NCBI GenBank assembly: GCA_028281385.1
Contig: JANQJY010000098.1
Span: 11,180-75,179 of the forward strand
Source of the DNA: Rickettsiales bacterium
Lineage (GTDB): Bacteria; Pseudomonadota; Alphaproteobacteria; Rickettsiales; UBA3002
Length of the DNA stretch: 64,000 nucleotides
Direction: 5' to 3'
Of the stretch, positions 2,327 through 62,055 are shown piece by piece. The notes below the pieces were generated by a model. It had not been told where the DNA came from, ran no database searches, and worked only from the letters and a program-made list of their open reading frames with translations. Numbering within the stretch: the stretch's first letter is position 1; each line of letters opens with the position of its first letter. The position numbers and the translations under genes were made by a program.

Positions 2327-2370
2327 AAAATAGCATGACGGAAGAGCCGGAAAGATGACAGTTTGGTGAA
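2327..2370 (-). promoter_or_regulatory. box promoter a (ttcaccaaactgtcatct, 20-nt spacer, tatttt)
   Basis: Box at 2353..2370, -10 at 2327..2332, 6 nt to ATG 2320 (leaderless geometry). Confidence 0.6.
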
Positions 2371-2382
2371 ATTTAGCAGTTA

Positions 2383-2799
2383 TTAATTATTGAGTTTTCC
2401 AGCAATCTGGTCACGCAATTCATGCGGCAATGCCTGCATGCGGTTAGGGAACATGTTGGTCATTTTGGTAATGAAACGCTCAAAGGTAATTTCACCGTCC
2501 TGATACAGGCGTTTGGTAAACAGTGCATGCTGCATGCGTATATTCGACAATGACGGCAAACCGATCACAATGGCTGTCGTGATGCTGGAGACGAGTTGCA
2601 TGTCTTCCTTGCCAGCCATTGTAGAGAGATTTTCAATCGCAGCATCGTAGGTTTTCAGGGATTCCTCGATCAGCGTTTCCATTTCTTCTGGACTCACCGA
2701 TACACACTGCATCCCCTGATCTTCCAGATACAGATCTCCATTGGCGTAATAGGTACTACGCTTCAGCTTATCCATTGCCTTTGGCAACTGCAGGAACAT
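2383..2799 (-). CDS. hypothetical protein (138 aa)
   Basis: ORF only; a TTAA-N7-TTAA box lies about 50 nt upstream. Confidence 0.4.
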   Translation of the reverse strand: MFLQLPKAMDKLKRSTYYANGDLYLEDQGMQCVSVSPEEMETLIEESLKTYDAAIENLSTMAGKEDMQLVSSITTAIVIGLPSLSNIRMQHALFTKRLYQDGEITFERFITKMTNMFPNRMQALPHELRDQIAGKLNN

Positions 2800-2847
2800 C
2801 GTCGTCTCTATCTATTTTTCAGCTTGCTCTATTATAAGTAGAGCGAG

Positions 2848-2862
2848 TTAACATTTTATTAA
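2848..2862. promoter_or_regulatory. TTAA-N7-TTAA (CtrA-type box candidate)
   Basis: ttaacattttattaa; between the g15 stop and the start of 2383..2799. Confidence 0.3.
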
Positions 2863-2946
2863 TTTCAACCGTTAATTCTTTATACCTGCAGGGTTATATT
2901 TGTATAAAAGTTTAGGAAAATTAATAAGATAAAGGGGAATAATATT

Positions 2947-5900
2947 TTAAACGGTTGCGCTGGTGCCATATCCTCGCCCAACCCTGCCAGATAGCTGATA
3001 TACAGTGATATTTATACTCGATTGCGCTGCACCAAAATCATTCACCTGGTCCGCCGCACTATAGGTGGCACCAGAATTATTGGCTGCAATCGTGCGCATC
3101 ACATCACTGCCATCCAGGATATCGATTTCATACGCTTCCGACTCTTCCGAAAGCGGCACATCGGTCAAATCCCGCCACTGGCCACCGATCCGTGTCCGCC
3201 GTACCCATGAGATGCTCAGATTGTCCGATCCGTCGCGTTCACCCGTCACATGCACAGGGCTGTAAGGTTTGAGCGCTCTGGCCTGATAGGTAAAAGACTG
3301 TGCACTGACCGAGCCGAGTGTCTTGCCGACGCTGACACCTTTGTAAAGGCGTGACAGGCCGATTAGTCCGTCCGCCATCGCCTCTTTCTGCAGATGGTTG
3401 TCAAGCAGGGTAAAAGCTTCACCGGCGCTATGTCCGCCCGTGGCCCATTCGGTGCCCTGCCGCCCGCGCAACAAACCAGACAGGCGATATTTATTGGGAT
3501 TGAGTTCAACGGCGCTTTTAAACTGAATAACTTCATCGCCAACAAGTGCTGCATTCGCACCGTTCAGTACCGCCAGTTCGGTAGCGCTGGCAAGCGTGCC
3601 TTCGCCCATCAATACCACATCCAGCGTATTTTGATCATCAAACACGCTGGTCGGACCGTCCGCCAGCGCGGTGGTCACCGTACCGAGCGTCGCGGGCTGG
3701 ACAAAAGAGGCAAGCGACTCATAACTGCCACCCTCATCATCGGACCGGTAAATTACCGCTCCTTTCCAGCCATCCGTGGTCTCGCCGATCGCTGCCATGC
3801 GCAGCAGCGCTTCATCGGCACTGTCCGTGCTGAGTGCCGGCATATCGAGCAGGCGATACAGCGTGCTCGGCACCGGCGCTTTGGGCGTTCTTACCACCGT
3901 CGATTCGCCAGGCGGCGCATAAAAATCATAGGTACTGACATCTTCGGCCACCGCCTGTATGCGCAGCATTCCCGGTCGTCCAAACTGCACATGCGTAACG
4001 CGCATGACATGCGACGCATTATTGGCACTGACCGTGATCACATCTGCCGGTTCCAGACCGGCATACTGTGTCGGTATATGAAACTGATAGCGAAGGCGGG
4101 ACATCCAACTGTTATACAGCGCGACATCGGCAATAATTTTGGCCTTCTGATCGCTCATCACAATCGGCAGACTCAGACTCTGCACATCGACTGCACTGGC
4201 GGTCAGACGCTGTGCATGCTGCGTGCCGGTTTGATAATTTTTGAGGCGGTTGATATACAGAATCTCCACCCGCTGCGGCAATTCCAGCTCCTGCGTACGG
4301 GTGATCTCAATCGCTTCGCCTGTCTGTGCACTCGTCAGCGGAATCAGTTGATCCTCAGCAATATTGAGCACACTCGCATTGCCACGCGGAATGAATTTCA
4401 GCAATCCATCCGACTCGGCGGCATCGAAGAAATAGGCCGCCATCAACTGTTCAATCAATCGGCGTGCACTATTTTGGCTACTGACGACAAAGCCCTCAAC
4501 CTGATCGTCCAAGCGCGTCACATCGATAAAGGATTGCGGCAGTCCGGCACGTTCGCTGAGGTCCGCGACAATCGCCGCCAGCGATGACAGGCCGAATTTC
4601 CCCTGCACCCAATGGCCGGTTTTCCACACGCCGCCATCGGCCCAGACCGAGAGCATATCCGGCCAGTAGGGATAGGGTCGTGCATCCCAGGTCCACAGGA
4701 ACAAATGCTCGATCATATCCGAGCCATCCCACTCGGACAATGTCGCGGCAATGCCGGCACGTTGCGCGCGAAAATCGATTCTGCCTTTTGAATGATAGGG
4801 AAAGAAACTCTCTGACGAGGTCGGATCATAAAATACATTCGGCTGATTCGTCGCACCATCGACACTGGGAAAACCGAATTCGGTAAACCAGATTTTCTTG
4901 GATTGCGGTGTCCATGCCGTGCTGTTGGTATCGGGATTGACATGGCTGTTTTTCCAGAACCAGTCGAGATTTTTCCAGGCGTATTTCGCTTCGAGATTCA
5001 CCTTGGTGGTGCGCTCTGGATCGCTGTAATACCAGTCATAGCCCTCGCCGGAGGTCCAACCCTGTTTGATCGTCGGAATGTCATAGCCGAGTTCGTTCTG
5101 CGGCACATCGGTCAGTGGAAAATAGGCATCGATTCCGATAAAGTCGATATTGGAGGAAGCCCAAAGCGGATCGAGATTATACCACCCCTCATCGGTATGA
5201 TGATATTCCGACCAGTCCGCCGCATAGGTCACTTTCACGCCGGAGCCCATCGTCGTTTTCACCGTCGTCGCCAGAGACACCAGCGCATCCACCGCCGGAA
5301 AGTTCCGGTTGGTACTGGCACCGTCATTCACCTTGGTCAGCCCGATCAGTTCCGAGCCGATGGCAAAGGCGTCAACCTTGTCTTTGACCAGACTGGCATA
5401 ATGATTGATGAAGGCGTTATAGCCGTCGGTTTTGGTGAAGAAGTTTGCAACGTCGGTGGTCGATCCGGTGACCCGTCCACGCCAGGGCTTATCCGTGACA
5501 TCCATCAGAAACATCGGATAGAAAAAGATATTATAGCCGCGTGCCTTCAGCTCATCCAGATAACGCAGCAGCGACTGATCATCCGGCGTGCCGCCATAGC
5601 GCGGTAAACCACTGTCATAGGTAATCTGCCATGCCGTTGAACGGTCAAAACTGCCGACACTCCATACCTCCGGGCTGGTGGTGGCCTGGCTTGCGGTAAA
5701 TTCGACACCCGGTTTGATGGTGCACAATCCCGCATCCATATTATCGCCGAACCAGTTGACGACCACCCCGATCCATTCGACATTCGGACAGCTATCCTCC
5801 AGCTGATCGAGCGCGACCAGTGCATTGGCTGTCTCTTCCGGCGTATGGCGATTGATGATGCTTTTGTCGCCCGACTGTACGAAATTGCCGCCGACATCCT

Positions 5901-6630
5901 CACCTTCGATTTTCTCCTGAATCGTGGTGTCATAGACAAATTCGCCGGAGCCGGGAATCATGATCATATCCTTGACCATATTTTCTACCGACTGACCATC
6001 AACATCCGGCCACAGAATCTTACGCTTGACCTCGGCGGTGAAATTGGGAATGCGATTGCCATACGCGCCAAGCGGGAAATCTTCCACCACAATATAGGCC
6101 ATGCCGCGATAGGCCGGCGTACTCCCTACCCCTTCATAGGATTCGATCAGCGGATCGGGCAATTGATCTTCGCCGCCTTTATAAATACGGTAGGTGCCTT
6201 CGCTCAGATCGAGCAGGTCGGCATCGGCCCAGATGCGCAGCACTTCGTCAATCTCGCCTTCACAAACGGCAATCGCCAGGCTGATAAAATAGCTGAATTC
6301 CGTGCTCGAACTGCTCGGCCCGCCACCACCCTTTCCGCCTTGCGTGCTGGTAGTGGTCGTGGCGATCTCCTTGATCGGGCGCGACCAGATGATATTTCCC
6401 GCCAGCCGTGCCGACCCATAGACAATCGGAATCATTTCCCCATAGGTCGAGGTTTGTACCGCCAGATCCTTCAGGCGCGCACCTTCGCGATGCGTATCTT
6501 TGGGTCCACCGAAAATCGCATTATCAACGGCATTGCCAAGCGTGCTCGCCGCCAGTTGCAACCCGATGGCAGCCAATGGATTTGCCGCCGCTACCGATGA
6601 TGCCGCTGTGCTTAATAACATAGAAGCCAT
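2947..6630 (-). CDS. RcGTA g15-like baseplate/host-specificity multidomain protein (TIM-barrel-like glycoside-hydrolase region plus phage-tail region)
   Basis: 1227-aa ORF; Gly/Ala-rich N-terminus, ..IWSRPIKE.., ..NRIPNFTAEV.., and overall layout typical of GTA g15 homologues; last gene in the g12-g13-g14-g15 order. Confidence 0.88.
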   Translation of the reverse strand: MASMLLSTAASSVAAANPLAAIGLQLAASTLGNAVDNAIFGGPKDTHREGARLKDLAVQTSTYGEMIPIVYGSARLAGNIIWSRPIKEIATTTTSTQGGKGGGGPSSSSTEFSYFISLAIAVCEGEIDEVLRIWADADLLDLSEGTYRIYKGGEDQLPDPLIESYEGVGSTPAYRGMAYIVVEDFPLGAYGNRIPNFTAEVKRKILWPDVDGQSVENMVKDMIMIPGSGEFVYDTTIQEKIEGEDVGGNFVQSGDKSIINRHTPEETANALVALDQLEDSCPNVEWIGVVVNWFGDNMDAGLCTIKPGVEFTASQATTSPEVWSVGSFDRSTAWQITYDSGLPRYGGTPDDQSLLRYLDELKARGYNIFFYPMFLMDVTDKPWRGRVTGSTTDVANFFTKTDGYNAFINHYASLVKDKVDAFAIGSELIGLTKVNDGASTNRNFPAVDALVSLATTVKTTMGSGVKVTYAADWSEYHHTDEGWYNLDPLWASSNIDFIGIDAYFPLTDVPQNELGYDIPTIKQGWTSGEGYDWYYSDPERTTKVNLEAKYAWKNLDWFWKNSHVNPDTNSTAWTPQSKKIWFTEFGFPSVDGATNQPNVFYDPTSSESFFPYHSKGRIDFRAQRAGIAATLSEWDGSDMIEHLFLWTWDARPYPYWPDMLSVWADGGVWKTGHWVQGKFGLSSLAAIVADLSERAGLPQSFIDVTRLDDQVEGFVVSSQNSARRLIEQLMAAYFFDAAESDGLLKFIPRGNASVLNIAEDQLIPLTSAQTGEAIEITRTQELELPQRVEILYINRLKNYQTGTQHAQRLTASAVDVQSLSLPIVMSDQKAKIIADVALYNSWMSRLRYQFHIPTQYAGLEPADVITVSANNASHVMRVTHVQFGRPGMLRIQAVAEDVSTYDFYAPPGESTVVRTPKAPVPSTLYRLLDMPALSTDSADEALLRMAAIGETTDGWKGAVIYRSDDEGGSYESLASFVQPATLGTVTTALADGPTSVFDDQNTLDVVLMGEGTLASATELAVLNGANAALVGDEVIQFKSAVELNPNKYRLSGLLRGRQGTEWATGGHSAGEAFTLLDNHLQKEAMADGLIGLSRLYKGVSVGKTLGSVSAQSFTYQARALKPYSPVHVTGERDGSDNLSISWVRRTRIGGQWRDLTDVPLSEESEAYEIDILDGSDVMRTIAANNSGATYSAADQVNDFGAAQSSINITVYQLSGRVGRGYGTSATV

Positions 6631-8075: not shown

Positions 8076-8531
8076 CTAAAAGCGGAATCCTGTAACAATC
8101 CGCCTTTGCCACATGTCATCCAACCGATGTTCTACCACTTTGCGTGCCGGCGCATAGGCATGGATCAGAGAAAGCGATGTAGGTTCGCCACCCGTAACAG
8201 GTAACGCGTAACTACTGACAATTCCTACATGCCTGGCATTGCCATCAATCCTCATCAGCGCGACATCACCTGGTTGCAATACATCCTTATCAATAAGGTG
8301 AAGTACCCGGCACAAGCCATTCCATAAACGTGCTTCGTCCGGAATATGACCATAATCGGTTTCATCGAAATCTGCCAATCGTTGCCCGGCTTTCTCAAGT
8401 TTTAACTCGCCGGCCACGCAGGCCAACAGACCCAGACAATCCACCCCATGCCGGCTGCGCCCCTGATGTCTGAACGGCACGCCGAGCCATCCGCGTGCAC
8501 AGGCAACAATCTGCTGGCAGCGCTCAGACAT
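8076..8531 (-). CDS. RcGTA g14-like NlpC/P60 cell-wall peptidase
   Basis: CARGWLGVPFRHQGRSRHGVDCLGL (catalytic Cys context), ..HVGIV.. and ..IHAY.. motifs; size and position as in GTA clusters. Confidence 0.85.
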   Translation of the reverse strand: MSERCQQIVACARGWLGVPFRHQGRSRHGVDCLGLLACVAGELKLEKAGQRLADFDETDYGHIPDEARLWNGLCRVLHLIDKDVLQPGDVALMRIDGNARHVGIVSSYALPVTGGEPTSLSLIHAYAPARKVVEHRLDDMWQRRIVTGFRF

Positions 8532-9409: not shown

Positions 9410-10258
9410 TTAACTGCTTCTGGTTGTTGAAGTTTCAAAGATCTTATCGGTTCCTGGCACATGTGGTTCGCCGCGAAAATTCACGGCATTGTTAAAGCGC
9501 GATATGCAGGTTTCGAATGTCTTGTCACACCCGGCTTCGGCACTATACCCATCCCCCACATTGACATCATACGGCATCGGCAAGACAGTGATAAACTGCC
9601 CGTTTGCGAATTCCTTGATTTCCATCGACAGTCCGGCATTGGCACCGCTGGTAAAGGTCATCAGACCAAAAGCGAAATAGCCATCCTCTTCCGTGCGTGT
9701 GCTATCGGTAAAGATGTTGCGATCGCTCACAGACGTCAATGTACCGATATGGGTAAATCCGGTCATATTCATCTTGCATCGGCTGCCGCCCAACCTGGCT
9801 CTGCAGCCCGGTGCGTACAGTTCCCCGATCGTCTGACTGAGCTGCTGCGTCAATCCGCGCACTTCGGCAACAAACTGCCCGTCCTTGACGGTCACTTCTC
9901 CCAGCCAACCCGTGCGCAGCATCATCCGTCCCTGCGTCAGATCAGCATAATTGACCATAAACACTTCGATTTCAGCAAAATCATATAGTCCGGCGAGCAG
10001 GTCTTCTTCCGTAATGGCTGCGGCATCGAGTAATCCTTCGATATCGAGATTATCGACATTCAATGCTGCCGAACCGACGATAGAGGTCGGCGTAAAACCG
10101 GTGGCAGCCTGATAGGTGACGCTATCAAACAGGATGTCACGGTCATGATCGGTGAATCCGAGTACGGTATTATCGCGCCGCGTCACTTTCCAGCAGGTTG
10201 CAAGCGTCGTTACTTCTTCTGCCAGATGGGCTTTCAATTCACTAGAAATGGATTTCAT
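9410..10258 (-). CDS. RcGTA g13-like hub protein (DUF2163 / BR0599 family)
   Basis: ..TTLATCWKVTRRDNTVLGFTDHDRDILFD..TYQAATGFT..VDNLDIEG..ITEEDLLAGLYD.AEIEVFMVNY is the characteristic N-terminal pattern. Confidence 0.9.
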   Translation of the reverse strand: MKSISSELKAHLAEEVTTLATCWKVTRRDNTVLGFTDHDRDILFDSVTYQAATGFTPTSIVGSAALNVDNLDIEGLLDAAAITEEDLLAGLYDFAEIEVFMVNYADLTQGRMMLRTGWLGEVTVKDGQFVAEVRGLTQQLSQTIGELYAPGCRARLGGSRCKMNMTGFTHIGTLTSVSDRNIFTDSTRTEEDGYFAFGLMTFTSGANAGLSMEIKEFANGQFITVLPMPYDVNVGDGYSAEAGCDKTFETCISRFNNAVNFRGEPHVPGTDKIFETSTTRSS

Positions 10259-10282: not shown

Positions 10283-10888
10283 CTAAATTCTAATCTCTAT
10301 AATCGGGATATCACTCCAGCTTCTAACACCATAATTCTCCAACGTTGCCGAAAGTTGGTCGGTATCGAACCGCACCGGCACATCAAATTTAAAATCAGCG
10401 GTAATCACCGCACTATTCGCCGGCGGTGTAGTGAAACTCACCGCACCGGTAGTGGTATCTATTGTCACGCCGCTGGTTTGTTCAATATCATCAACATAGA
10501 TAGTGACACTTCCACTGACCGGTTTGGTAATGGTTCGCGATTCATTGCCGCTACCGCTGCTGTAATTTTTCACCAGTTGAAAATCGGTGGTGCTGCCATC
10601 GCCCGTGCCGATCGTTTCTCCGGCAGTTTCGAAATCCGTCCAGTCTTTGAAACGAAACCCGTGCGCCCGTCCTTTGCGTGCACGGAAAAACGCAATCAAT
10701 AGATCGAGCTGTGCTTGCATTTTGACTCCATGCGCAACATTATAACGCGCACGTGCCTGCATCCAGTTACTGTTACGTTGTTCATGCCCGCCCTGGGTAA
10801 CAACAATATCGGTCGAATAACCGGGTCCACCAGATGAGCCATAGCTGATATCCGTTGGGAACTGCACCTCGTGAAAGGCCATAATCAA
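10283..10888 (-). CDS. RcGTA g12-like distal tail protein (DUF2460 / TIGR02217 type)
   Basis: MAFHEVQFPTDISYGSSGGPGYSTDIVVTQGGHEQRNSNW..RARYNVAHG..LIAFFRARKGRAHGFRFKDWTDF is the signature of the family; start is 10888 or 10882. Confidence 0.9.
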   Translation of the reverse strand: MIMAFHEVQFPTDISYGSSGGPGYSTDIVVTQGGHEQRNSNWMQARARYNVAHGVKMQAQLDLLIAFFRARKGRAHGFRFKDWTDFETAGETIGTGDGSTTDFQLVKNYSSGSGNESRTITKPVSGSVTIYVDDIEQTSGVTIDTTTGAVSFTTPPANSAVITADFKFDVPVRFDTDQLSATLENYGVRSWSDIPIIEIRI

Positions 10889-10918: not shown

Positions 10919-12250
10919 TTAAGACGTTTTTTGCGCCGCTTGTCTGGCGGCCAGTTCCTGCTGTGCCTTGACCATCTCGACAAAGCTGTCACCCTTGCGC
11001 ATGTTGGCACCACGTTGCACGGCTTCTGTCCATTTACCGACAGGTTTTCGCTCCTGCGCATGAGCGGTCGGCTGCCTGTCCACCGTAACCTTGGCGGAGG
11101 CGGAAGGCCGGAGCGAATGCGAATGACCTTCATCCTCTTCCAGATACCGGTCCACCCGCTCTACTGCATCTGCAATAAAAGACCGTCCTTCGTGATCCTG
11201 TACGCGATTCGCCGTTGTAATCGGTGCCTGCATTGCATGATCCGTCGGGCCAAGCCTGTCGATCAACCGGCCGATCATCAAACGCCCGGCATCCACACCT
11301 TGATTCGCGGCAAACGCATCTTCCGCACAGAGCCGCGTCAACGCGTCATATTTGCGCATCAGCATCAACTGCCCGCGTTCGCTCAGTGCATGAAACGGTT
11401 CGCCATATTGATTTTTAATCGCTTCATACAGATAGGGGTTTTGCGCTATGCGTACTTTGAAAATATCCAGCGCAGTAACCTTTTCACCTTCCATTTGTTT
11501 GGCAATCACATTATCGATATGCATCGCCGGGTTTTGCTGGTCATCGACATCCATAACATTTTTACCGATATAAGTACCAAGTGGATAACCGATACTGAAG
11601 CCAATAAAGCTACCAACCAGTCCACCTATTACCGCTAACGGCCCGAGAGCCGTAATCGCAACCCCAACAGAACCAAGCACAAACGCGCCTATGCCAGCTC
11701 CCACAAGCCCAGCCATATTCAGCCATGGATGTTTCTCTTTGTCTTCTTCCAATGCGTCAAGGGTACGATGCAGACTCTTATTGGTACGTGCCGCATATTC
11801 CATGGCATTTTCATCCACACGATTTGAGTCGATATCCAACTGCTCGGCAATTTCTTCGCGGTATTCATCCAGCACCATCTGGCGCTGTTTGTTATATTTA
11901 TACTGCGCATTAATAAACCCAAACGGTGCGCCGATAACCGCACCTGCAGGCCCAATCGGTAATCCGGTTTCCGCTATTTCCAGCAGGTAATCCGTGGTCA
12001 GGGTATCGCCGATTTTCTGCGGCACTCCTTTCATCTGACCGCCAACGATGGGAATCTCCATATTCCTTACCATCTGCGGCACCGGCACATGATCGCCCCA
12101 AGTATGGACCAAAGATTTCTTTTCCATTTCCCCCTTCGGATCGATTGAAACTCCTGCCGGATGACTTGCCGTCACCTGCGCACGCCTTGCCTGGCCATAA
12201 TCATACTGGAACGGATTAGGCTCAACCATTGGCACTCTCCTCTCCGGCAA
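10919..12250 (-). CDS. hypothetical protein with Gly-zipper TM hairpin (443 aa), in the position where a tape measure gene would be
   Basis: ORF ends 30 nt before g12 and overlaps the upstream ORF by 29 nt; segment GLVGAGIGAFVLGSVGVAITALGPLAVIGGLVGSFIGFSIGYPLG. Confidence 0.6.
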   Translation of the reverse strand: MPERRVPMVEPNPFQYDYGQARRAQVTASHPAGVSIDPKGEMEKKSLVHTWGDHVPVPQMVRNMEIPIVGGQMKGVPQKIGDTLTTDYLLEIAETGLPIGPAGAVIGAPFGFINAQYKYNKQRQMVLDEYREEIAEQLDIDSNRVDENAMEYAARTNKSLHRTLDALEEDKEKHPWLNMAGLVGAGIGAFVLGSVGVAITALGPLAVIGGLVGSFIGFSIGYPLGTYIGKNVMDVDDQQNPAMHIDNVIAKQMEGEKVTALDIFKVRIAQNPYLYEAIKNQYGEPFHALSERGQLMLMRKYDALTRLCAEDAFAANQGVDAGRLMIGRLIDRLGPTDHAMQAPITTANRVQDHEGRSFIADAVERVDRYLEEDEGHSHSLRPSASAKVTVDRQPTAHAQERKPVGKWTEAVQRGANMRKGDSFVEMVKAQQELAARQAAQKTS

Positions 12251-14072
12251 TGCTCATTTGCGGCGCTACGGCCACGGCCCCTTCATGCACAGCTGAATCG
12301 GTCATCAGGGTAGTCGGTGGAATATTCAGTTTCGCCGCACGTTCACGCAGGCTCTGGCGTCTTTCTTCCGCTTTGACCGGCGCCTCTTTTCGTTCTTTCA
12401 CCTTCTGTTCCAGCTCCTTGGCTTTGTCTTCCCTGAAGGCTTTGGCATTGGCTTCCGCCTGTTCTTTCTGTTTCATACCAAGCTCTTCGGCGATACGCTC
12501 TGTCCGCTCATTAAACTTCTCTTCACCGTCAATCTCAGCCAGCAATTCGGCAACGGGTATCTGTTCTTCCGCATATTCCTTTGCCAGCTGTTGCAAAAGC
12601 GGGTTCTCGATTCCACCAGTCGCTCCTGCTGCTTTGGGAGATGCCGCCATGATGATTTGTGCATAATAGTCCAGCGGCACGAAGGTTCCGTCTTTTTGCG
12701 CATCCTTAACCTGCACATAGCTGTTGAGGAAATTACCTTCACTTCCCAGCTTACTGCTTTCCCAATGTGCCATTTGCATCATGATGGCACCGCCCATCAA
12801 CAGCGGATTATGATGGCGCATGGTAAATAAAATATTCAGTGCCGAGTTACCTGCCGCTCCTATGGCTTCCGGTCCCAGATTCGCCCACATATTGCTGCGT
12901 GCCTGTTCGACCATTTTCGGCAGTTTGCCAAACAGGATCGTATAGGTAGACGCGTCTTTGCCGGTCAAGTCCTTATGCAATTCTTTCAGATAGGAAATCG
13001 ATTCAGTGAACCGCAGCGTCGTACGTCCGGTCTGATACGCAGCACCTGCTAACATACCACCTTTAAACCCGGCGTCAAAGACAGTCGTATTGGCTGCTGC
13101 TGATTTCAGCGCACTCATCATCGTACGTCTTCCGGCAGCCGCGTCCATACGCCCGGCGAGACCATGCGTACCTTCTTCGACATGCCGGAAATGCTCCGCC
13201 AACTTCGCCGCATGTGATGTTACCTCGGCACCCTTAGGCAGAACCTTAAGCGCCGCCTGTGCATCTGCCAAATGTGCTTTTGCTGTGGTCATGTCTGCAA
13301 CACCGTGCGTACTACCCAACGCCGCTCTAAATTTCCCGAGATGTCCTTCAATCTCGTGCATATACGCTGGCGTCTTAACAACCTCTGTACCAGCCTTTCC
13401 GAACAATCTTCCCGCGCGTCGTGTAATCTTGTTTAGGAAACCATTATGTGGGTCCTTCACATTCTGCATCAATGTATCCACATCGCTCAGTAGATTTTTG
13501 TGATGTTTTGCTAATCCCGATCTCTGCCATCTTTGCCACAGGGGGGAGGCTTCTCCAGTATGCAGCGTTTTCTCCGCAACGGCCTTTTCCACCGGACGTA
13601 TGTTGTCAGCAACATTATACAACGAACTGGATCCCAGATGCTTCGTATTCACATCCGCTACCGCACCGACCAGATTCGCCGGCAATGCACCTACCTGCCC
13701 AAGTTTTGTCGCCTTCATGGCTTCCGTCGGTGCACGCAGCAGGCTATCGGTTCCAACCCGGAAATATTTCCCGACCCATGGCAATTTACCAACCGTTGCC
13801 CCTAACAATCCGGCCAGCAATGGTCCGAAGAACTCAAGATTGAAGAACCCCCACCCGATGCTATCCCCTTCATTCAATACTTGGAATTCGACATCATCAT
13901 AAAGATGATGGCGTTCTTTGAGAGGCGGTACATTATTCTGTAGTTCATTCGGCAGATGTGCCGCTGTTTTTCCGGTAGAATGTGTGGTGGTGCGCGCAAC
14001 ATTCCCTACCCCGGCCAACTGGCTGGTGACGTTGCTGGCGGCTTGCGCTGTCTGAACGGGGGTACTCACCAC
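12222..14072 (-). CDS. hypothetical large helical protein (616 aa)
   Basis: GTG start with AGGAAAAG RBS; box promoter at 14110..14153; Lys/Glu-rich coiled C-terminus. Confidence 0.6.
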   Translation of the reverse strand: MVSTPVQTAQAASNVTSQLAGVGNVARTTTHSTGKTAAHLPNELQNNVPPLKERHHLYDDVEFQVLNEGDSIGWGFFNLEFFGPLLAGLLGATVGKLPWVGKYFRVGTDSLLRAPTEAMKATKLGQVGALPANLVGAVADVNTKHLGSSSLYNVADNIRPVEKAVAEKTLHTGEASPLWQRWQRSGLAKHHKNLLSDVDTLMQNVKDPHNGFLNKITRRAGRLFGKAGTEVVKTPAYMHEIEGHLGKFRAALGSTHGVADMTTAKAHLADAQAALKVLPKGAEVTSHAAKLAEHFRHVEEGTHGLAGRMDAAAGRRTMMSALKSAAANTTVFDAGFKGGMLAGAAYQTGRTTLRFTESISYLKELHKDLTGKDASTYTILFGKLPKMVEQARSNMWANLGPEAIGAAGNSALNILFTMRHHNPLLMGGAIMMQMAHWESSKLGSEGNFLNSYVQVKDAQKDGTFVPLDYYAQIIMAASPKAAGATGGIENPLLQQLAKEYAEEQIPVAELLAEIDGEEKFNERTERIAEELGMKQKEQAEANAKAFREDKAKELEQKVKERKEAPVKAEERRQSLRERAAKLNIPPTTLMTDSAVHEGAVAVAPQMSIAGEESANG

Positions 14073-14109: not shown

Positions 14110-14153
14110 AGTATAATGGTAAATGGCGTGTGATTTTATGAAGCTTTTGTGAA
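14110..14153 (-). promoter_or_regulatory. box promoter b (ttcacaaaagcttcataa, 20-nt spacer, tatact)
   Basis: Box at 14136..14153, -10 at 14110..14115; upstream of 12222..14072, 10919..12250, g12 and g13. Confidence 0.55.
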
Positions 14154-14160
14154 GACTGGA

Positions 14161-14224
14161 GGGATTGGGCATTAGGGATTAGAAAATCTAATGCTCAATG
14201 CCTACTCCCTAATGCCTAGCTCTA
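14161..14224. repeat. heptad-type palindromic element (ggcattaggga / tccctaatgcc)
   Basis: 11-bp perfect inverted repeat at 14168..14178 and 14206..14216; supplies the stop of 14202..16466. Confidence 0.65.
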
Positions 14225-16466
14225 AAATATCCGAAACTGTACCATAATGCAACACATGATCCACGGTGGCATTGGTTATCTGGCGTTCAATGCCTTCCGG
14301 CTGCGTTGGTTTGCTTTTCATTTCTTTCACTCCGTCTATGCCTTGTTCTTTGATTTTCTGAGCGGCGTCTGACAATTTTTCTATTTCCGCTTTCGTCATG
14401 CCCATCTGCTTCAGTCGGTCGTCACCAAGACTGACAAGCCCCATGATAGCATCCAGTAAATACTGTTCATATTGCGCTTTGGTTTTCTCGCGAATCGCCG
14501 TAATTTCCTTTTTCTTCAGACCTGCCGATTCCAGAATACTGTTCGGAAAAAATGATGCGTATACCGCTTTTTCCTCTCCTTCCATTGCATTCAGAGCATC
14601 ACGCAACTGATCCTTGCTGAAGGCGGCATCACCGAAATAACGCGACTCATCGACATGTATCTTTTCTTTTACTTTTTCTGCCAGACGTGCAAGCTGACGT
14701 CTAACCACTTCCTCGCTGGCAATCGATTTTCCATCCATCCTGATGATATGACGGGTCCCTACCAAATGAATCAGTTGCAATGTACCTATCTCCCCATCGC
14801 GTAGTGCTTTGGCAATCAACTCAGACACTTTATAAAGTTTTTCATGCAACCGTTTGCCGATCTTATTATTGGGGTTGCAGTCTTGTTCATGCTGCTGGAA
14901 TATCTGTGCAATATAGGTTTCAAGTGTCACTTCATTTTTATTGTCTTTGCGGTCGACATTCATCTGTGGCGGTAGTTTGTAGCGTTCCAGTGATGGATCA
15001 TCTTCTATTTGTCCTTTCAGATACAAAATCATATCCAGCGCAGTGACGGGCTGTGTCACTTTTGTGCGGTTACTATTGAACTGATTGGCAAACATACTCA
15101 CGACAAAAGACGCAGCTGGTACAGCAAAATTCATCTTATTTTCCGATGGCAGATACTCCGGCACATCGGATGTTTGCTTCCCGACTTCTTCTGCCAGTCC
15201 GGTGAGTTCTTTTTGCGCCTGCTCGTAGGATTTTTCTCTGCTTAAGAAGCCTTCCGCCTTGCTGTGCAATTCTTTTGCCCGCGCGAGGATTTTCTCCTGC
15301 TGCATTTTAATCGCATCCATGCTGTTGCCTGTTTTGGCCGTAATCTCTTCGAGTTTTTCACGCTGGAATGCATCAGCGCCAAGCGCGCCTGCGCGATGGT
15401 TCATTCTAAGTGCGTTATAGACAAATATCGGCAGTCTCTGGAATAGATTGATGAAATTATGACCACGTTGCGTGTTCAGATCATAATGGATTTTGCGCCG
15501 CGCATTATAAATCACTTCATTATCATCTTTGCGTACACGCATCAGCGACAGATAGCCATGCTGTTTTTCGCCTTTAATATCATCGAGAATCGGCGAAACA
15601 TTCTTTGCCAGCCTTTGCATATTCTGCTGATATCTTTTTTCTGTTTGCCACATCGCATTGATATCGACCCAGTTGGTCACTCCGAACAAGGCCGTATACG
15701 CCGTTGCCAGTGCGGTTATGTGACGGTGGGTGGCGTGCATACCGGTGGTTTTGAGCACCTCCTCAGTCATACCATAGGTTTTCTTGCCTATCCAGTTACC
15801 GACGCCCAGCGCTGCCAGGCTATACATCATCGACAGGCCCGCCGCATATTCACGCTTTATACCGACCAATCCGAAAAGCGAGACTTCCTTGCTTTCTTCA
15901 TCGACGACCATGCCCGGCAGTTCTTTGAGTTTATCATCGGTCATATGTTCGCCGAAACTCTGTGCCTGACTGCCAAACTGCTGGAACAGATTTTTCATCG
16001 TATCGTTTACCGGAAGCGTGTCCGCCGCACTGCCCGCCAACTTCGCCATGGCCGCACCGGCGGCATTCATATCGCCGCCCTGGAAAGCACCCTGTAGTTG
16101 CTGCGCCTGCGCCATGGCCTGCTGTCCTTGTGCCATCATATTCGCGGCATCGCCCATACCGTTCGCTTTCATCTGTGCCTGGGTAAATGCCGCCATCTGC
16201 TCCGGCGAGGCATTATGCATGCTGTTCATCATCGCGTTGATCTTCTCAGGCGATTGCGCAAGCGTATCCGCCACCGTACCGACACTTTCGGCATTCACCA
16301 CGCTTGACACAGTATCTTTCGTATCCCTGGCGGCGGCTTCCAGTGACTCACTCATTTCCTTCACGGCTTCATCATCTGTTTCTTTTTTTGCCATAGTCTC
16401 TTTCTTTTTCGCCTTCACTTTGCTCCTGTGCCTGAGCGGTCGCGTTTGCGACATGACATCCGACAA
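14202..16466 (-). CDS. hypothetical large protein (754 aa; alternative start at 16394)
   Basis: Long ORF; the first 24 codons are encoded by a family-A repeat, so ATG 16394 (MAKKETDD..) may be the real start; box promoter at 16519..16562. Confidence 0.6.
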   Translation of the reverse strand: MSDVMSQTRPLRHRSKVKAKKKETMAKKETDDEAVKEMSESLEAAARDTKDTVSSVVNAESVGTVADTLAQSPEKINAMMNSMHNASPEQMAAFTQAQMKANGMGDAANMMAQGQQAMAQAQQLQGAFQGGDMNAAGAAMAKLAGSAADTLPVNDTMKNLFQQFGSQAQSFGEHMTDDKLKELPGMVVDEESKEVSLFGLVGIKREYAAGLSMMYSLAALGVGNWIGKKTYGMTEEVLKTTGMHATHRHITALATAYTALFGVTNWVDINAMWQTEKRYQQNMQRLAKNVSPILDDIKGEKQHGYLSLMRVRKDDNEVIYNARRKIHYDLNTQRGHNFINLFQRLPIFVYNALRMNHRAGALGADAFQREKLEEITAKTGNSMDAIKMQQEKILARAKELHSKAEGFLSREKSYEQAQKELTGLAEEVGKQTSDVPEYLPSENKMNFAVPAASFVVSMFANQFNSNRTKVTQPVTALDMILYLKGQIEDDPSLERYKLPPQMNVDRKDNKNEVTLETYIAQIFQQHEQDCNPNNKIGKRLHEKLYKVSELIAKALRDGEIGTLQLIHLVGTRHIIRMDGKSIASEEVVRRQLARLAEKVKEKIHVDESRYFGDAAFSKDQLRDALNAMEGEEKAVYASFFPNSILESAGLKKKEITAIREKTKAQYEQYLLDAIMGLVSLGDDRLKQMGMTKAEIEKLSDAAQKIKEQGIDGVKEMKSKPTQPEGIERQITNATVDHVLHYGTVSDILELGIRE

Positions 16467-16497
16467 TGGATCAAGTGGCAGAGCGAAAAGCGATAAA
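16434..16497 (+). repeat. family-A element (long-loop variant)
   Basis: gagcggtcgcgtttgcg..atccgacaatggat..aagtggcagagcgaaaagcg. Confidence 0.75.
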
Positions 16498-16518: not shown

Positions 16519-16562
16519 ACTATAGCAATCAAACGATTAGACGCGTGTGACAATTGTGTGAA
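16519..16562 (-). promoter_or_regulatory. box promoter n (ttcacacaattgtcacac, 20-nt spacer, tatagt)
   Basis: Box at 16545..16562, -10 at 16519..16524; drives 14202..16466 through a family-A element. Confidence 0.6.
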
Positions 16563-47849: not shown

Positions 47850-48455
47850 ATGACCGACTACCCACCACCATCTCCACCACCGGCAATTATTGCGCCTGCT
47901 CCTTTAGAATACCGCCACTCGAATTTGTCTGCAAATGCTTCTAATCCAACAGACTTGGCAAATCGCATCGCAAGAGCAGAACGATCGCTGTATAATGAAA
48001 TGTCTGATACATTCAGAGGTACAGCTCTTGAGGGGCAGTTTCCGGCTTCTCCCTACGGTCTCATCACCATGGCAAACGACGGTCCAGAAAATAGGAAGAT
48101 ATTCGTAAAAATACTTGAGATTTGGTATGGTTCGAAAGGCTCTGCATTCCCATTCCCCTCCCGTTTAATCGGCGCAAATCCAGATGGCACTTCCGTGTTA
48201 ACAAAGGATTTATTAGTACCCTATGTCAAAATGCTTGAGCAAGCGGCACAAGACAACGCACTGGGTAAGCTTGTAGAAGCCAAAGCCATGGAGGAATATG
48301 GTGATCTATCTACAGCCAATGTCAGTGATGAAAACCCCAAAACACAAAGAATGCTTAATGCTGCACTCGAAGAACTTTATGCTAATCTTCTCACTAAATT
48401 AAGAAAACAATCAGAAGCACAGGACCATGATGCTGGTGGTCAGCGTCAACTCTAA
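47850..48455 (+). CDS. hypothetical protein (201 aa)
   Basis: ORF; box promoter at 47771..47814. Confidence 0.5.
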   Translation: MTDYPPPSPPPAIIAPAPLEYRHSNLSANASNPTDLANRIARAERSLYNEMSDTFRGTALEGQFPASPYGLITMANDGPENRKIFVKILEIWYGSKGSAFPFPSRLIGANPDGTSVLTKDLLVPYVKMLEQAAQDNALGKLVEAKAMEEYGDLSTANVSDENPKTQRMLNAALEELYANLLTKLRKQSEAQDHDAGGQRQL

Positions 48456-51880: not shown

Positions 51881-53299
51881 CTAACGTTTCACTCCACCCG
51901 CCCATCGCAGCGGATCCACATATTTCAGCCACCGGGTCAGCAGCCCGTGCTCATCCATCCAGGCGGCATAGTCGCGATACTCCTCATAGCGCATCAAATG
52001 CCGTTCCTCGGTTTTGGCACGCGCATAATAAACCGCATTCACGCACAACAATCCGCCGGCATTCAACAGCATGTTTTCCGGACTGTCATGCATGATAAAC
52101 GGGAAGAACGCCCCCCACCAGAACAGATTCTTGGTCAGATAACCCGGATGTTTTGTTACCCGGAACACGCCACCTGTAATCAATCCACGATAGGTCAGGT
52201 TCGACCAGCGCAGTCCGAATGCCACCGAGGATGAGGCGTGTGCCAGCATCAGCAGCACCAGTGTACTGCCCCATACATAATAGGGCGTACTGCCGGCATC
52301 GATCCAGTGATACCAGGGATGGTTCGTTGCATAATAAATCAGATGACCGAACACCAGCACGTCCCAGAAAGGGGTATAGCACATCACGCACGACACCCAC
52401 CCGCCCCATGTATTATCTGTGGAACGGACATGCGTATCCAACAGCCGGAGGTTAAACAGATAGCCAACGACCACCGGCGTCAGATCGATCAGGAACATCA
52501 GGCTGATCAGATGCAGATACACCGTCAGGAACCGCGCCTCTTCATGCCAGTTATAATCGGCGAGATCGCCCATCATCTGCGCAATGTTAATCAGCATGAT
52601 CGGCAGGAAATAGCCCTTGATGATCCAGGTCCGCGCGTGATGTGCCAACATCGGCCAGTTCATCCTGTGCCGGAGCGGTCGGCTGGGGCCGGAGCGACGG
52701 CGGAAAATATCACGCCGGAGCGGTCGGTCGTGCAGGAGTCGTTGGCTGAGGCTACGACGAATGCGGATAATCAGACCGGAGCGACGGCAGAAAATTCCGT
52801 GCCTAAGCAATAACGCTGTTTCGCGGTAGGCATCCTCCGGCTCACGCATGTTCCCGTCAAGCCAAGCGATATAAAGCAGCGAGACCGGTATCAGATACAG
52901 CGCTCCCGCATATAGCGTCTGGAATGCAAAATCGTAGCGCCAATGGCCATAGAAGGGGATCAGATAATAACAGAATGCCAGTGCCGACAGCGTTGCCAGA
53001 AATCCGATCCATTTCAGGCCGATCCGTCGCCAGTGCCACGGTAGTTTACGCGTGAAGTCCAGCCCTGTTTCTTCGCGTCGGTATACTTTGACCACAGCCA
53101 GATCATATGCGGCCAGCAGTAGGAAATAGATGGCAGGGAACAGCATCCAATAATCCATCGCCACATGTTGATGATAGCGGCAGGTCCAGCCGAACAGCGC
53201 CAGCATTACCACCAGCGTCAGATGGTTCATCCAGATATTCGTGCAGCTTTTCGGGCAATGTTCGGGGGGTGTCATGGTGATGGTTATAACAGCTTGCAT
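51881..53299 (-). CDS. polytopic membrane protein with C-terminal ICMT/PEMT-like methyltransferase motif; in-frame repeat insertion in a loop
   Basis: Many TM helices; ..GGVFRVTKHPGYLTKNLFWWGAFFPF.. resembles the RHPxY-type motif of isoprenylcysteine carboxyl/phospholipid methyltransferases; aa about 165-212 come from family-A units. Confidence 0.6.
   Translation of the reverse strand: MQAVITITMTPPEHCPKSCTNIWMNHLTLVVMLALFGWTCRYHQHVAMDYWMLFPAIYFLLLAAYDLAVVKVYRREETGLDFTRKLPWHWRRIGLKWIGFLATLSALAFCYYLIPFYGHWRYDFAFQTLYAGALYLIPVSLLYIAWLDGNMREPEDAYRETALLLRHGIFCRRSGLIIRIRRSLSQRLLHDRPLRRDIFRRRSGPSRPLRHRMNWPMLAHHARTWIIKGYFLPIMLINIAQMMGDLADYNWHEEARFLTVYLHLISLMFLIDLTPVVVGYLFNLRLLDTHVRSTDNTWGGWVSCVMCYTPFWDVLVFGHLIYYATNHPWYHWIDAGSTPYYVWGSTLVLLMLAHASSSVAFGLRWSNLTYRGLITGGVFRVTKHPGYLTKNLFWWGAFFPFIMHDSPENMLLNAGGLLCVNAVYYARAKTEERHLMRYEEYRDYAAWMDEHGLLTRWLKYVDPLRWAGGVKR
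52664..52805 (+). repeat. family-A short unit plus hairpin unit, read antisense in frame in 51881..53299
   Basis: Translated on the minus strand as ..RRSGLIIRIRRSLSQRLLHDRPLRRDIFRRRSGPSRPLRHR.. Confidence 0.85.
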
Positions 53300-55423: not shown

Positions 55424-55972
55424 GTGTTTTACATGCGCAGTTTCCCCACCCGCCGCGGCCGTCCCAAACAAGCAACGTCATCCACCGATCCCGGCACGCC
55501 CGAACTGATCATGAAACGCGCGCATGGTGTTACTGCCGAGCCGATCGATTTGTGTCTGGAGCGTAATATCATTACCGAAGAGCAGCATTGGTGCGGGCTG
55601 CATTTACGCTGGCTATACACTATCCGCTATGGCACACCTAACATATCGGCGCTTAATCTCATGCGCGGTGCGGGCGAGGATATTGCCGAAGACGATCCGG
55701 ACTGGCGCGCCGCTCGCGAAGAAGAGTTGCAGGACGCAGTCGATCTGCTCGCCAGCAAACGTCGCTATGAACCGGTGGCCGGCCTGTGTATCTACAACGA
55801 GCCTGCGCGTTTTCTAAACCGTGAACTGCTGTGCCGTGCCTATAACAGTCAGAGCATCGCTCATACCATCGAGCGTGAAATCGATATTCTCCGCGACGGG
55901 CTCGACCTGCTGGTACATCATTGGGGACGCCTGTGCTCAAGCGATCGGCCAAGGCCGGAGCGAGAGCGATAA
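55424..55972 (+). CDS. hypothetical protein (182 aa); C-terminus and stop supplied by repeat DNA
   Basis: ORF; the last 13 codons lie in a family-A unit. Confidence 0.4.
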   Translation: MFYMRSFPTRRGRPKQATSSTDPGTPELIMKRAHGVTAEPIDLCLERNIITEEQHWCGLHLRWLYTIRYGTPNISALNLMRGAGEDIAEDDPDWRAAREEELQDAVDLLASKRRYEPVAGLCIYNEPARFLNRELLCRAYNSQSIAHTIEREIDILRDGLDLLVHHWGRLCSSDRPRPERER

Positions 55973-56152
55973 AACTAATCGGTAGCGGTTGGGGTGCGCC
56001 TGTGCTTGAGCGGTCGTGTTAGCGCGGAGCAAAAGCAAAAAAATATATCAGAGCGACGGCGAATAAAGTCTGTTCGAGCGGTCGGTTCTGTGCTCAAGTT
56101 ATTGGCTGAGGCCACAACGAGAGCGAATAAAGGTCGAAGCAAGGGCGATAAA
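55930..56152 (+). repeat. array of 3-4 diverged family-A units
   Basis: cctgtgctcaagcgatcggccaaggccggagcgagagcg.. / ..cttgagcggtcgtgttagcgcggagc.. / ..gttcgagcggtcgg..attggctgaggccacaacgagagcg.. Confidence 0.75.
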
Positions 56153-60656: not shown

Positions 60657-60672
60657 TACCTCTCATTGACTC

Positions 60673-61914
60673 CTAATACTGTATTTCCACACGATCAAAG
60701 CCCTTCATGATATAGCCGTTAGCGATAAACTCATTCCGCCCCTTCGTCCTGAGATTATGCGCCGATTTACCCCCACGAATCACTTTCTTCTCAATGCTTT
60801 CTACCGTCACATGATTGCCCTGCCAATCAACCAACACATCACCGACTTCCAGCTTGCCCGCTATCTCGACATCGCTTCTGGTTACGGTCGCTGACGGGTC
60901 AACGGCCTTCCACCCCTCCGTCGTCATAATCGGATGCTCGCTGGTAAAGAAGGCACCATCACCGTTGATCGCATACATGACATCCGTCTCCTGTGCGGAG
61001 GCATTGCGCGCTGTTACTGTCGATGCGCCGTAAGGTGTCATCACACTGTCACCCGGTGCCACCTGCTCAATCGGTTTTTGCGTACCGTCTGCCATGGCAA
61101 CCGGTGTGCCTTCCAATACACAGCCAGTGGCATCATGCCCTTTATTTGCAGCTTCTCTTTCCTTTGCTTTTTCTTCTTCACATTCCTGCTGTAGTTTTTC
61201 CAGTTCTTTGATGATGTCATCTTGCGTGCGTTTCTTGCCTTTTTCCTTAGGATCCTGCTTTAACCTTCTCTCGATTTCTTCTTTTTTCTGTTTTTCCGTA
61301 CCGCCACCCGCATTAACATCCGCTTCGCACGGAGTGAGACAAACAATACGCCCCACCGCTGTTACCTTGCTCCGGCATTCGATAATCCCATCGATACTCG
61401 TATCGCTACATATCTTCTCTATCTCAGGGTTCTGCATCAATTCTTCATTCTTCAAATCCAGATATCCTTTTATTTTTTCGCCTCTATCCAGATAATCGTT
61501 CACTGCGGAACCATACAAATCCTCCTTGAAGATTTCCAGATAGGTAATGACTTGAATTTCCTCCTCCGGACATACTTGCTCACAGCAGCGCTCAATCATC
61601 CAAGCGGGCATTCTCTGATTCTCCAGATTATTATATTCCTCCGGTGTTTGCGGGCAGTAACTCTTGGGCGGGCAATAGCAGGATTTCTGATCGCTCTCAT
61701 TCTCCCACGGTTCCGCACGCGACGGCAGGCAGGCCAACGGCAGATGTCCCCAATCCGGTGTAATGACTTCTGCATGCGCGTCCTTCACAGGGTGACATGA
61801 CGCAATCGCCAACATCATAAAAAGTGCTACAAATGTAAAAGACCTCATGACACCTAATCTCCCTAACATTGCGCCACATGCATAACGCCGAATAGATTGA
61901 GTTAATATCATCAT
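60673..61914 (-). CDS. secreted Cys-rich / Lys-Glu-rich protein ending in a Hint (bacterial intein-like) domain
   Basis: Signal peptide; C-terminal about 150 aa: GCVLEGTPVAMADGTQKPIEQVAPGDSV..FFTSEHPIMT.EGW..LEVGDVLVD..AHNL..GRNEFIANGYIMKG match the Hint/BIL block pattern. Confidence 0.6.
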   Translation of the reverse strand: MMILTQSIRRYACGAMLGRLGVMRSFTFVALFMMLAIASCHPVKDAHAEVITPDWGHLPLACLPSRAEPWENESDQKSCYCPPKSYCPQTPEEYNNLENQRMPAWMIERCCEQVCPEEEIQVITYLEIFKEDLYGSAVNDYLDRGEKIKGYLDLKNEELMQNPEIEKICSDTSIDGIIECRSKVTAVGRIVCLTPCEADVNAGGGTEKQKKEEIERRLKQDPKEKGKKRTQDDIIKELEKLQQECEEEKAKEREAANKGHDATGCVLEGTPVAMADGTQKPIEQVAPGDSVMTPYGASTVTARNASAQETDVMYAINGDGAFFTSEHPIMTTEGWKAVDPSATVTRSDVEIAGKLEVGDVLVDWQGNHVTVESIEKKVIRGGKSAHNLRTKGRNEFIANGYIMKGFDRVEIQY

Positions 61915-61925
61915 CTCACAAAATG

Positions 61926-61940
61926 GTTAATTATTTGTTA
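61926..61940. promoter_or_regulatory. TTAA-N7-TTAA (CtrA-type box candidate)
   Basis: ttaattatttgttaa; divergent region between the Hint-protein and metalloprotease genes. Confidence 0.3.
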
Positions 61941-62011
61941 ATTTTTCTCAAAGAAATGATTAATTTTAGTTAAATACCTTAATGATGCTCCCCCCGGATG
62001 AATGATAAAAC

Positions 62012-62055
62012 TTCATCGAACTGTCACACTGATTAACACAGCACTTTGCTATACT
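62012..62055 (+). promoter_or_regulatory. box promoter m (ttcatcgaactgtcacac, 20-nt spacer, tatact)
   Basis: Upstream of the metalloprotease gene 62126..63892. Confidence 0.65.

Follow-up and report, generated by a model that had tools for sequence, protein, structure and literature searches.

The stretch of DNA analysed here, 64,000 nucleotides of contig JANQJY010000098.1 from a Rickettsiales bacterium (positions 11,180 to 75,179; hereafter the window), is built around a head-tail gene cluster resembling that of the Rhodobacter capsulatus gene transfer agent (RcGTA), the modules of which are separated by inserted genes for a pentapeptide-repeat protein, RTX proteins, an ATP-grasp enzyme, HigBA and many ORFans, open reading frames (ORFs) without a match to Pfam, NCBIfam or PHROGs. 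Roughly one transcription unit in two within the window is preceded by an 18-bp box of direct repeats, and it is this box, found mostly within the gene transfer agent (GTA) cluster, that concerns us. We find that it keeps a fixed distance to the -10 of promoters lacking a -35 element, that it is conserved between diverged lineages and that it is equivalent in sequence to the Pho box. An activator of the OmpR/PhoB family very probably binds it, and with a probability of roughly 0.5 the boxes are sites for a phosphorylated response regulator of that family which is most likely the organism's PhoB orthologue. Three Logan contigs of 16–19 kb from run SRR20820735 extend the window by 2.9 kb to the left and 9.9 kb to the right, so that the DNA examined comes to 77 kb.

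All 14 of the 18-mers listed in the original prediction of a regulon lie where it placed them and are oriented toward the downstream gene. To avoid circularity, the motif was also counted independently of that choice of sites, as the bare pattern [GT]TCA[CT]-N6-[GT]TCA[CT] (KTCAY-N6-KTCAY). The window holds 25 matches, 20 of them in the 11.4% of its length that is intergenic (binomial p = 4e-15), and 19 of these 20 have a gene start on the same strand 34–121 nt downstream. Halves separated by other spacers (2–5 or 7–12 nt) give 1–11 matches each, with 0–3 intergenic, which bears out the earlier description of direct repeats 11 bp apart. Enrichment over shuffled controls is likewise found within the window: the degenerate pattern proposed earlier has 25 matches with at most two mismatches where 5.4 are expected (shuffle maximum 13), and a matrix built from the 14 sites has 26 matches of at least 12 bits as compared to 2.7 in shuffles. 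We count 18 box promoters in the window and two in the flanks, four of those in the window (46820, +; 25290, −; 36578, −; 45724, −) being absent from the earlier list. When the sites are aligned, the repeat unit reads T(G/T)TCAY-nnAAC, head to tail with an 11-bp period; unit number varies from two to four, and five sites are extended to arrays of three or four units by extra repeats at 17523, 30735, 33621/33632, 46750 and 47760. Beyond the box and the -10 the promoters are unrelated in sequence, and the proteins encoded downstream are not paralogues of each other. Mobile-element or repeat origin is rejected in view of the dissimilar flanks and of the position of the box outside any longer repeat, and an origin by repetition or chance is effectively excluded.

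The distance from box to core promoter is fixed as well; the gene starts and -10 hexamers used throughout are predicted ones. A TAnnnT hexamer begins 19–21 nt after the 18-mer at 16 of the 18 curated sites, against an intergenic background of 0.064 (p = 1e-17); the 13 of 14 reported earlier becomes 12 of 14 under a strict rule, the site at 17534 having TATATA and that at 35458 having its -10 at 8 nt. The absence of a TTGACA-like -35 holds at all sites, where the best match at a 16–18 nt spacer is at most 3 of 6. The gap from TGTCAY to the -10 is 21–23 nt in 14 of the 18 sites, so that the box spans about -52 to -35, and no sites other than 35458 and the final units of arrays 30724, 33621 and 46750 show a gap of 10 nt. 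If the upstream region is divided into 11-bp slots, r1 to r4, with r4 adjoining the -10, most window sites fill r2–r3, whereas 35458 fills r3–r4, 30724 and 46750 fill r2–r4 and 33621 fills r1–r4. Slot r3, adjacent to the position of sigma region 4, is filled at every site; the protomer seated there would be the one that contacts polymerase, and its partner may sit on either side. The start codons of the box-preceded genes at 2320, 30773 and 40958 lie 6, 6 and 10 nt past the -10 hexamer, which implies that these transcripts are leaderless or nearly so.

The strongest evidence that the box is functional is its conservation upstream of homologous genes in five other loci. Homologues of the 754-aa gene (27–35% identity) in L022 (NCBI contig JACCDH010042481.1, positions 1–20191) and in L023/L024 are preceded by the box, then by 20 nt of unrelated sequence and then by a -10 (TATAGT, TACATT); in L002 a box of 26 bits lies upstream of the homologue, but no clear -10 follows it at 20 nt. 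When the four promoters are aligned, the unvarying columns are concentrated in the box and the -10. The promoter of the 616-aa family shows the same pattern in L022, where the atypical second half-site of the 14136 box, GCTTCAT, is also kept; the divergent pair at 16545/16611 has a matching pair in L022; and the 223-aa gene before g6–g8 carries the box in the window, L026 and L027 (the capsids of the latter two are 76–77% identical to that of the window). The homologous proteins behind conserved boxes share 27–38% identity, and box and spacing are kept where spacer and flanks have diverged; invariant columns in the box and -10 of three promoter alignments thus point to functional constraint on the box. 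Two ORFs overlap on opposite strands at the 223-aa gene (24378–25085, +; 24456–25127, −), and conservation of the minus-strand one in L026 and L027 (36–38% identity, same position before g6) shows that it is the real gene.

Because the box is conserved upstream of homologous genes of the GTA cluster, it would drive conserved GTA operons and recent insertions alike. Its targets, described earlier as mostly accessory ORFans, also include conserved operons of the cluster, those of the 223-aa gene with g6–g8 and of the 754-aa and 616-aa families with g11–g13. Outside a GTA cluster, L002 has a box upstream of a 178-aa gene beside housekeeping genes. Other viral contigs (356 kb, with capsids 39–58% identical) gave no match of at least 16 bits, the GTA loci L003 and L004 gave none of at least 13 bits, and in the GTA locus L006 there were only weak matches of 13–16 bits and no recognisable box promoter. 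Every related locus was picked up by means of GTA proteins, so sampling accounts in part for the apparent association of the box with GTA clusters. L012 (ENA scaffold ZHEN20-1..._1), where the context is one of unrelated housekeeping genes, carries GTCATAAAAGCGTCATGT at 9963–9980, upstream of the only distant homologue of the ATP-grasp gene (30% identity) and in the canonical register, 10 nt from TAAATA, which an ATG follows after 6 nt; the ATP-grasp gene may have belonged to the box regulon for a long time.

Table 1. Box promoters, CtrA boxes, GTA genes and dispersed repeats of the window and its flanks. Boxes are followed by their predicted -10 hexamer and the gene that they are predicted to drive.
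Feature	Position	Strand	-10 hexamer	Downstream gene or remark
Box TTCACCAAACTGTCATCT	2353–2370	−	TATTTT 2327–2332	ORFan 1874–2320; ATG 6 nt past -10, predicted near-leaderless
Box TTCACAAAAGCTTCATAA	14136–14153	−	TATACT 14110–14115	616-aa gene 12222–14072, then g11-like, g12, g13
Box TTCACACAATTGTCACAC	16545–16562	−	TATAGT 16519–16524	754-aa (738-aa) gene 14202–16466
Box TTCATGAAACTGTCACAC	16611–16628	+	TATACT 16649–16654	Divergent unit beginning 16708–17373
Three-unit array GTAAC..TTCAC..TGGCAG	17523–17551	+	TATATA 17573–17578	17640–18857 and 18890–20533; flanked by hairpin repeats
Box GTCATTTAATCTTCATAC	25290–25307	−	TACACT 25264–25269	Conserved 223-aa gene 24456–25127, then g6–g8; not in earlier list
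Box TTCATAAAACTGTCACAT	26025–26042	+	TAAACT 26064–26069	Small ORF 26133–26378
Three-unit array GTCAT..TGTCAT..TGACAT	30724–30752	+	TAAAAT 30761–30766	Pentapeptide-repeat gene 30773–33052; last unit 10 nt from -10; ATG 6 nt past -10
Four-unit array TTCAT..TGTCAT..GGTCAT..GGTCAT	33621–33660	−		ORFan 33143–33571, inserted between portal and protease
Box GTCATAAAACCGTCACAT	35458–35475	+	TAAGAT 35484–35489	35553–35867; canonical Pho-box register, GTCAC 10 nt from -10
Weaker box GTCATCAAATCTTCACTT (11.7 bits)	36578–36595	−	TACACT 36553–36558	35923–36519; not in earlier list
Box TTCATGAAACTGTCATAT	40994–41011	−	TATAAT 40969–40974	ATP-grasp gene 39690–40958
Box TTCACAGAACTGTCACAC	43333–43350	+	TACAGT 43371–43376	ORFan 43451–44344
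Weak box TTCATAAAGATTTAACAC (12.3 bits)	45724–45741	−	TATAAT 45699–45704	44361–45653; not in earlier list
Three-unit array GTCAT..TGTCAT..TGTCAT	46750–46778	−	TATGAT 46736–46741	46127–46642; last unit 10 nt from -10
Box TTCACGCAAATGTCACAC	46820–46837	+	TATAAT 46857–46862	46901–47662; not in earlier list
Three-unit array GTCAT..TTCAT..TGTCAT	47760–47788	+	TAGACT 47809–47814	47850–48455
Box TTCATCGAACTGTCACAC	62012–62029	+	TATACT 62050–62055	M10/RTX metalloprotease gene, real start 62126
Intragenic match GTCATCACACTGTCACCC (18.8 bits)	61037–61054	+	none	Antisense within Hint-domain gene 60673–61914 (−)
Flank site, L011 2250	left, outside window			Upstream of 542-aa gene whose tail is window 41–1078
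Flank site, L015 11817	right, outside window			Three-unit; upstream of RNase R (rnr)
TTAA-N7-TTAA, exact match to canonical alphaproteobacterial CtrA box	2848, 7644, 22007, 28509, 28520, 57117, 61927			
RcGTA-like head-tail cluster	2947–41569	−		Pfam annotation; holds most boxes
Terminase_6C ORF	41024–41569	−		Pfam
Portal	33654–34955	−		Pfam
Prohead protease	29942–30565	−		Pfam
HK97 capsid	27177–28442	−		Pfam
g6–g8	22657–23998	−		Pfam
g12	10283–10888	−		Pfam
g13	9410–10258	−		Pfam
g14	8076–8531	−		Pfam
g15	2947–6630	−		Pfam
GC-rich repeat copies	16428–16486, 17379–17524, 17602–17677, 30637–30676, 34751–34877, 35104–35232, 38369–38497, 39050–39223, 43782–43944, 52663–52808, 55929–56125			

Direct repeats of about one helical turn, in variable number and in fixed phase to the core promoter, are what sites of the OmpR/PhoB family look like, and the 11-bp head-to-tail units, the arrays of two to four, the single orientation, the missing -35 and the conservation across lineages together support the earlier assignment to this family. 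The motif itself speaks for PhoB. The window matrix scores the Escherichia coli Pho boxes at 25.0 and 16.6 bits (pstS), 21.7 bits (phoB) and 12.9 bits (phoA), with one further match of at least 14 bits in 28 kb of E. coli DNA, inside the phoB gene, and the predicted pstS promoters of the alphaproteobacteria Skermanella and Azospirillum have boxes of the GTCAT-N6-TGTCAT type. Like Pho boxes, those of the window consist of at least two head-to-tail 11-bp units of CTGTCAY with a 4-nt A/T-rich linker, and they take the place of the -35 of a sigma-70 promoter in the polarity of transcription. At E. coli pstS, phoA and phoB the 18-mer lies 8 nt and TGTCAY 10 nt from the -10, simple Pho boxes there filling r3–r4; the sites at 35458, 30724, 33621 and 46750 also put a unit exactly 10 nt from the -10, which we count in favor of PhoB. 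Boxes outside GTA clusters, upstream of RNase R in L015 and of the 178-aa gene in L002, fit a global regulator, and any organism that has PhoB would be expected to bind such sites.

The regulator would bind head to tail, as a dimer or as three to four protomers on the longer arrays, to 11-bp units C-T(G/T)TCAY-nnAA on the non-template strand that point toward the gene. The promoter-proximal unit TGTCAY, always present at about -40 to -35, would lie directly upstream of the seat of sigma-70 region 4, so that the bound regulator could stand in for the missing -35 and recruit the sigma-70 holoenzyme to a good -10 (TATAnT). The regulon would then comprise conserved operons of the RcGTA-like cluster, lineage-specific insertions and at least one core gene (RNase R), and a single signal would switch on the whole set together, namely phosphate limitation should PhoB be the regulator. 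We infer activation rather than repression, and likewise the identity of the regulator and its signal.

Several observations weigh against PhoB. In 14 of the 18 window sites the promoter-proximal unit does not end about 10 nt before the -10, as it does in a canonical Pho box at about -41 to -25, and the box lies one unit (about 11–12 bp) further upstream; PhoB at E. coli pstS occupies -41 to -25 (PMC10570014), and because strict spacing has been reported as necessary for activation by PhoB (PMC10294691), the shifted register counts against a plain PhoB reading. Scans of almost all ORFs against Pfam, NCBIfam and PHROGs revealed no regulator gene of this family (Trans_reg_C, or receiver plus winged helix), the window and its flanks contain no pst or pho gene, no pst or phoU homologue was found in the window or the related loci compared, and no downstream gene is recognisable as a phosphate-acquisition gene. 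Some 20 PhoB promoters in 77 kb would, moreover, be far denser than any described Pho regulon. Nor are TGTCA half-sites unique to PhoB, because the footprint of BvrR, the orthologue of ChvI, covers TGTCA-N4-TGTCA (PMC10538546).

Alternatively, a different member of the OmpR/PhoB family could act by the same mechanism in answer to a signal other than phosphate, whether a lineage-specific PhoB paralogue, a ChvI/BvrR-like or CenR-like regulator, or one dedicated to the GTA cluster and its cargo; we regard this as a possibility of some weight, though less likely than PhoB itself. It would accommodate the shifted register, the targeting of GTA modules and ORFans instead of phosphate genes, and the restriction of the box-GTA link to certain lineages, as the results for L003, L004 and L006 indicate. 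The protection of TGTCA repeats by BvrR and the 11-bp period of the CenR motif speak for it too. However, the motif is indistinguishable from genuine Pho boxes, including the A-rich 4-nt linker, a second regulator of PhoB specificity would cross-talk with PhoB, and no gene for such a regulator was seen in the cluster of any lineage examined. The characterised candidates also differ from the window box in their sites. CenR binds low-information direct repeats, TGA-N8-TGA, that share the 11-bp period and lie just upstream of the -35 (PMC9275681), a position similar to that of the window box, but the polarity is opposite, the window coding strand reading TCA-N8-TCA. The Caulobacter ChvI motif is TTGC-N3-GCAA (PMC9731502), and box 2 of BvrR, with its two TGTCA repeats, has a period of 9 bp rather than 11 bp (PMC10538546); ChvI/BvrR sites differ from the window box in sequence and period.

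The original prediction had itself allowed that the box might be no more than the general promoter architecture of the lineage, an upstream or -35-substitute element read by RNA polymerase or the housekeeping sigma factor. The presence of the box on about half of the transcription units and the lack of a -35 at those promoters would agree with this, but the window also contains upstream regions with a CtrA box or with neither motif, the 10-kb housekeeping flank on the right, in which folC, rnr, znuBC-like genes and a hybrid kinase form part of about eight transcription units, has just one box, that of rnr, and related loci rich in housekeeping genes have 0–2. Variable unit number and two registers are, in addition, typical of a response regulator and not of a sigma factor. 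General promoter architecture is thus contradicted, effectively excluded in our view and very improbable; because promoters of the other kinds coexist with it and the housekeeping flank has its single box, the box would mark one regulon among at least two activator classes. Exact TTAA-N7-TTAA occurs at seven sites, all intergenic (7 against about 0.9 expected, or 14 strand-counts against 1.7), at promoters other than those with the TCAY box, among them a tandem pair in the divergent region between the capsid and RTX genes and one site upstream of the Hint-domain gene; L022 has one CtrA box just upstream of g15. These sites look to be a second response-regulator regulon in the same island. The TCAY boxes themselves do not match TTAA-N7-TTAA(C), and genuine CtrA boxes occur separately from them. 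As to other binders, GafA has no defined motif, and the bases of the alphaproteobacterial SOS box, GTTC-N7-GTTC, do not fit the window box.

Least probable of all is that the boxes are repressor operators or inert remnants spread with a mobile promoter cassette: repression is within the repertoire of this response-regulator family and the downstream genes look horizontally acquired, but the sites stand further upstream than the -35 position and do not overlie the core promoter, the promoters, having no -35, need an activator, there is no similarity beyond box and -10, no longer repeat and no relation between the downstream proteins, and box and spacing persist where all else has diverged. The intragenic match at 61037 is probably inert or due to chance, and it calls to mind the PhoB sites within E. 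coli genes that have been described as transcriptionally inert (PMC10294691).

Among 5.8 billion proteins the best relative of the organism's RNase R (L015 9252–11735, right flank) reaches no more than 34% identity, and several of the relatives bear the label of Rickettsiales metagenome-assembled genomes; the lineage that carries these promoters thus appears to be deep and poorly sampled. Megablast of 20 kb of the window against phage and plasmid collections gave no match. Scans of genomes, metagenomes and viruses with g15 found relatives at 38–66% identity only, the nearest being metagenome-assembled Alphaproteobacteria labelled Rickettsiales or Hyphomicrobiales. The GTA cluster of L022 is syntenic and more compact: portal and protease are adjacent there, whereas in the window two box-driven genes lie between them, and protease and capsid are parted by a colicin-D-like gene in L022 and by an RTX gene in the window. 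Because different genes lie between the same modules, the gaps between modules would seem to be variable cargo slots.

A more speculative scenario, which we think rather unlikely, can be built on this arrangement. Control of the GTA cluster may have been rewired from a single operon under GafA or GafYZ and CtrA to a multi-promoter regulon driven by PhoB, with the gaps between modules serving as landing pads where cargo (RTX, pentapeptide, lectin-like and esterase-like proteins, ORFans) gains a box. Phosphate starvation would then trigger both particles and a private set of secreted and accessory proteins, through a geometry shifted one helical turn upstream.

A number of other features of the island deserve mention. 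The Terminase_6C ORF is a stand-alone ORF of 181 aa that holds the RNaseH-like nuclease domain alone, no ATPase domain having been found near it; L027 has a 58%-identical stand-alone copy (3569–4048) adjoining its capsid gene, and the ORF may represent a domain that has been kept on its own and not a recent pseudogene. A pair encoding a HigB-like toxin and an HTH_3 antitoxin (26279–27010, −) is inserted between the capsid gene and the gene for a 116-aa protein (25486–25836, −). The 116-aa family, which has a paralogue at 45844–46116 (+) and members in L022 (3884–4228), L026 (2039–2389) and L027 (4276–4626), adjoins the capsid gene and shows 62–78% identity across the loci compared, similar to the capsid. 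This protein has no Pfam match, a profile search against the PDB was empty, and its single-sequence AlphaFold model (predicted local distance difference test score of 70, alpha/beta fold) had no Foldseek match with E below 0.28; the profile and Foldseek searches thus gave no support to the idea that it is a hidden DNA-binding protein. No PDB relative was found for the 221-aa protein at 16708. Residues 61–158 of the 754-aa protein (gene 14202–16466, −) bear a faint similarity to the F-box type III effector XopI (E = 0.0017, well short of the cut-off for that family), a hint, and no more, of a eukaryote-like domain in this family. Rfam and tRNA scans revealed no non-coding RNAs.

The window also contains a GC-rich family of dispersed repeats, with units of about 45–76 nt, often in tandem at 45-nt spacing, and the core GAGCGGTCGGCTGAGGCCGGAGCGA. 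The copies lie mostly at gene ends or in dubious N-terminal extensions of ORFs, three of them flank the box at 17534, and plus-strand copies fold into long hairpins (z about -3); they look like elements of the REP (repetitive extragenic palindrome) or MITE (miniature inverted-repeat transposable element) type. The odd paralogy of ORFs 35051–35344 and 51881–53299 is due to these shared repeats.

If the PhoB interpretation is correct, the boxes provide a concrete cis-regulatory code for a GTA cluster in a lineage that has never been cultured and, through direct wiring of the promoters, put GTA expression under a two-component system that senses nutrients. Phosphate level is known to affect the release of RcGTA, and to our knowledge no direct link of PhoB to that release has been established; a literature search likewise found no paper making a direct PhoB-GTA link. 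It would also follow that genes inserted in a domesticated phage cluster can come under the cluster's own control. The roughly 20 natural promoters with a PhoB-type dimer one turn upstream of the textbook position may be useful for gauging how strict the geometry between activator and sigma region 4 is, and the matrix offers a handle to predict co-regulated ORFans in related metagenome-assembled genomes.

Among known systems, the Pho box and PhoB regulon come closest: the CTGTCAY unit, A/T-rich 4-nt linker, 11-bp period, gene-ward polarity, arrays of two to four units and replacement of the -35 at a sigma-70 promoter are shared, and four window sites stand at the canonical 10-nt distance. Most of the window sites, by contrast, span about -52 to -35 rather than -41 to -25, their density is extreme, and in place of phosphate-scavenging genes the boxes precede GTA structural operons, RNase R, ORFans and the genes for RTX, pentapeptide and ATP-grasp proteins. 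The PmrA regulons, through which Dot/Icm effectors are controlled in Legionella and Coxiella, offer a likeness in design, a tandem site of the OmpR family at a fixed distance to the -10 before many unrelated, lineage-specific genes of unknown function; however, the PmrA motif is of the TTAA type and not TGTCAY, its hosts are gammaproteobacterial, and beyond the faint F-box-like match the window shows no sign of a secretion system or effectors. The head-tail clusters of RcGTA and of the Caulobacter crescentus gene transfer agent (CcGTA) have been described as one long operon transcribed from one promoter, with GafA or GafYZ (PMC9638019, PMC11150451). These GTAs, controlled by CtrA and GafA or GafYZ, share with the window an RcGTA-type cluster under response-regulator control, and CtrA boxes are found in the window as well, whereas the window cluster is broken up into many units interleaved with cargo genes, and several of these units have a TCAY box to themselves. 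The kind of element is thus already known; what appears to be new is its use in a GTA cluster that is broken up and laden with cargo, the promoters of which are connected one by one to a PhoB-type box whose register is shifted and which stands beside CtrA boxes.

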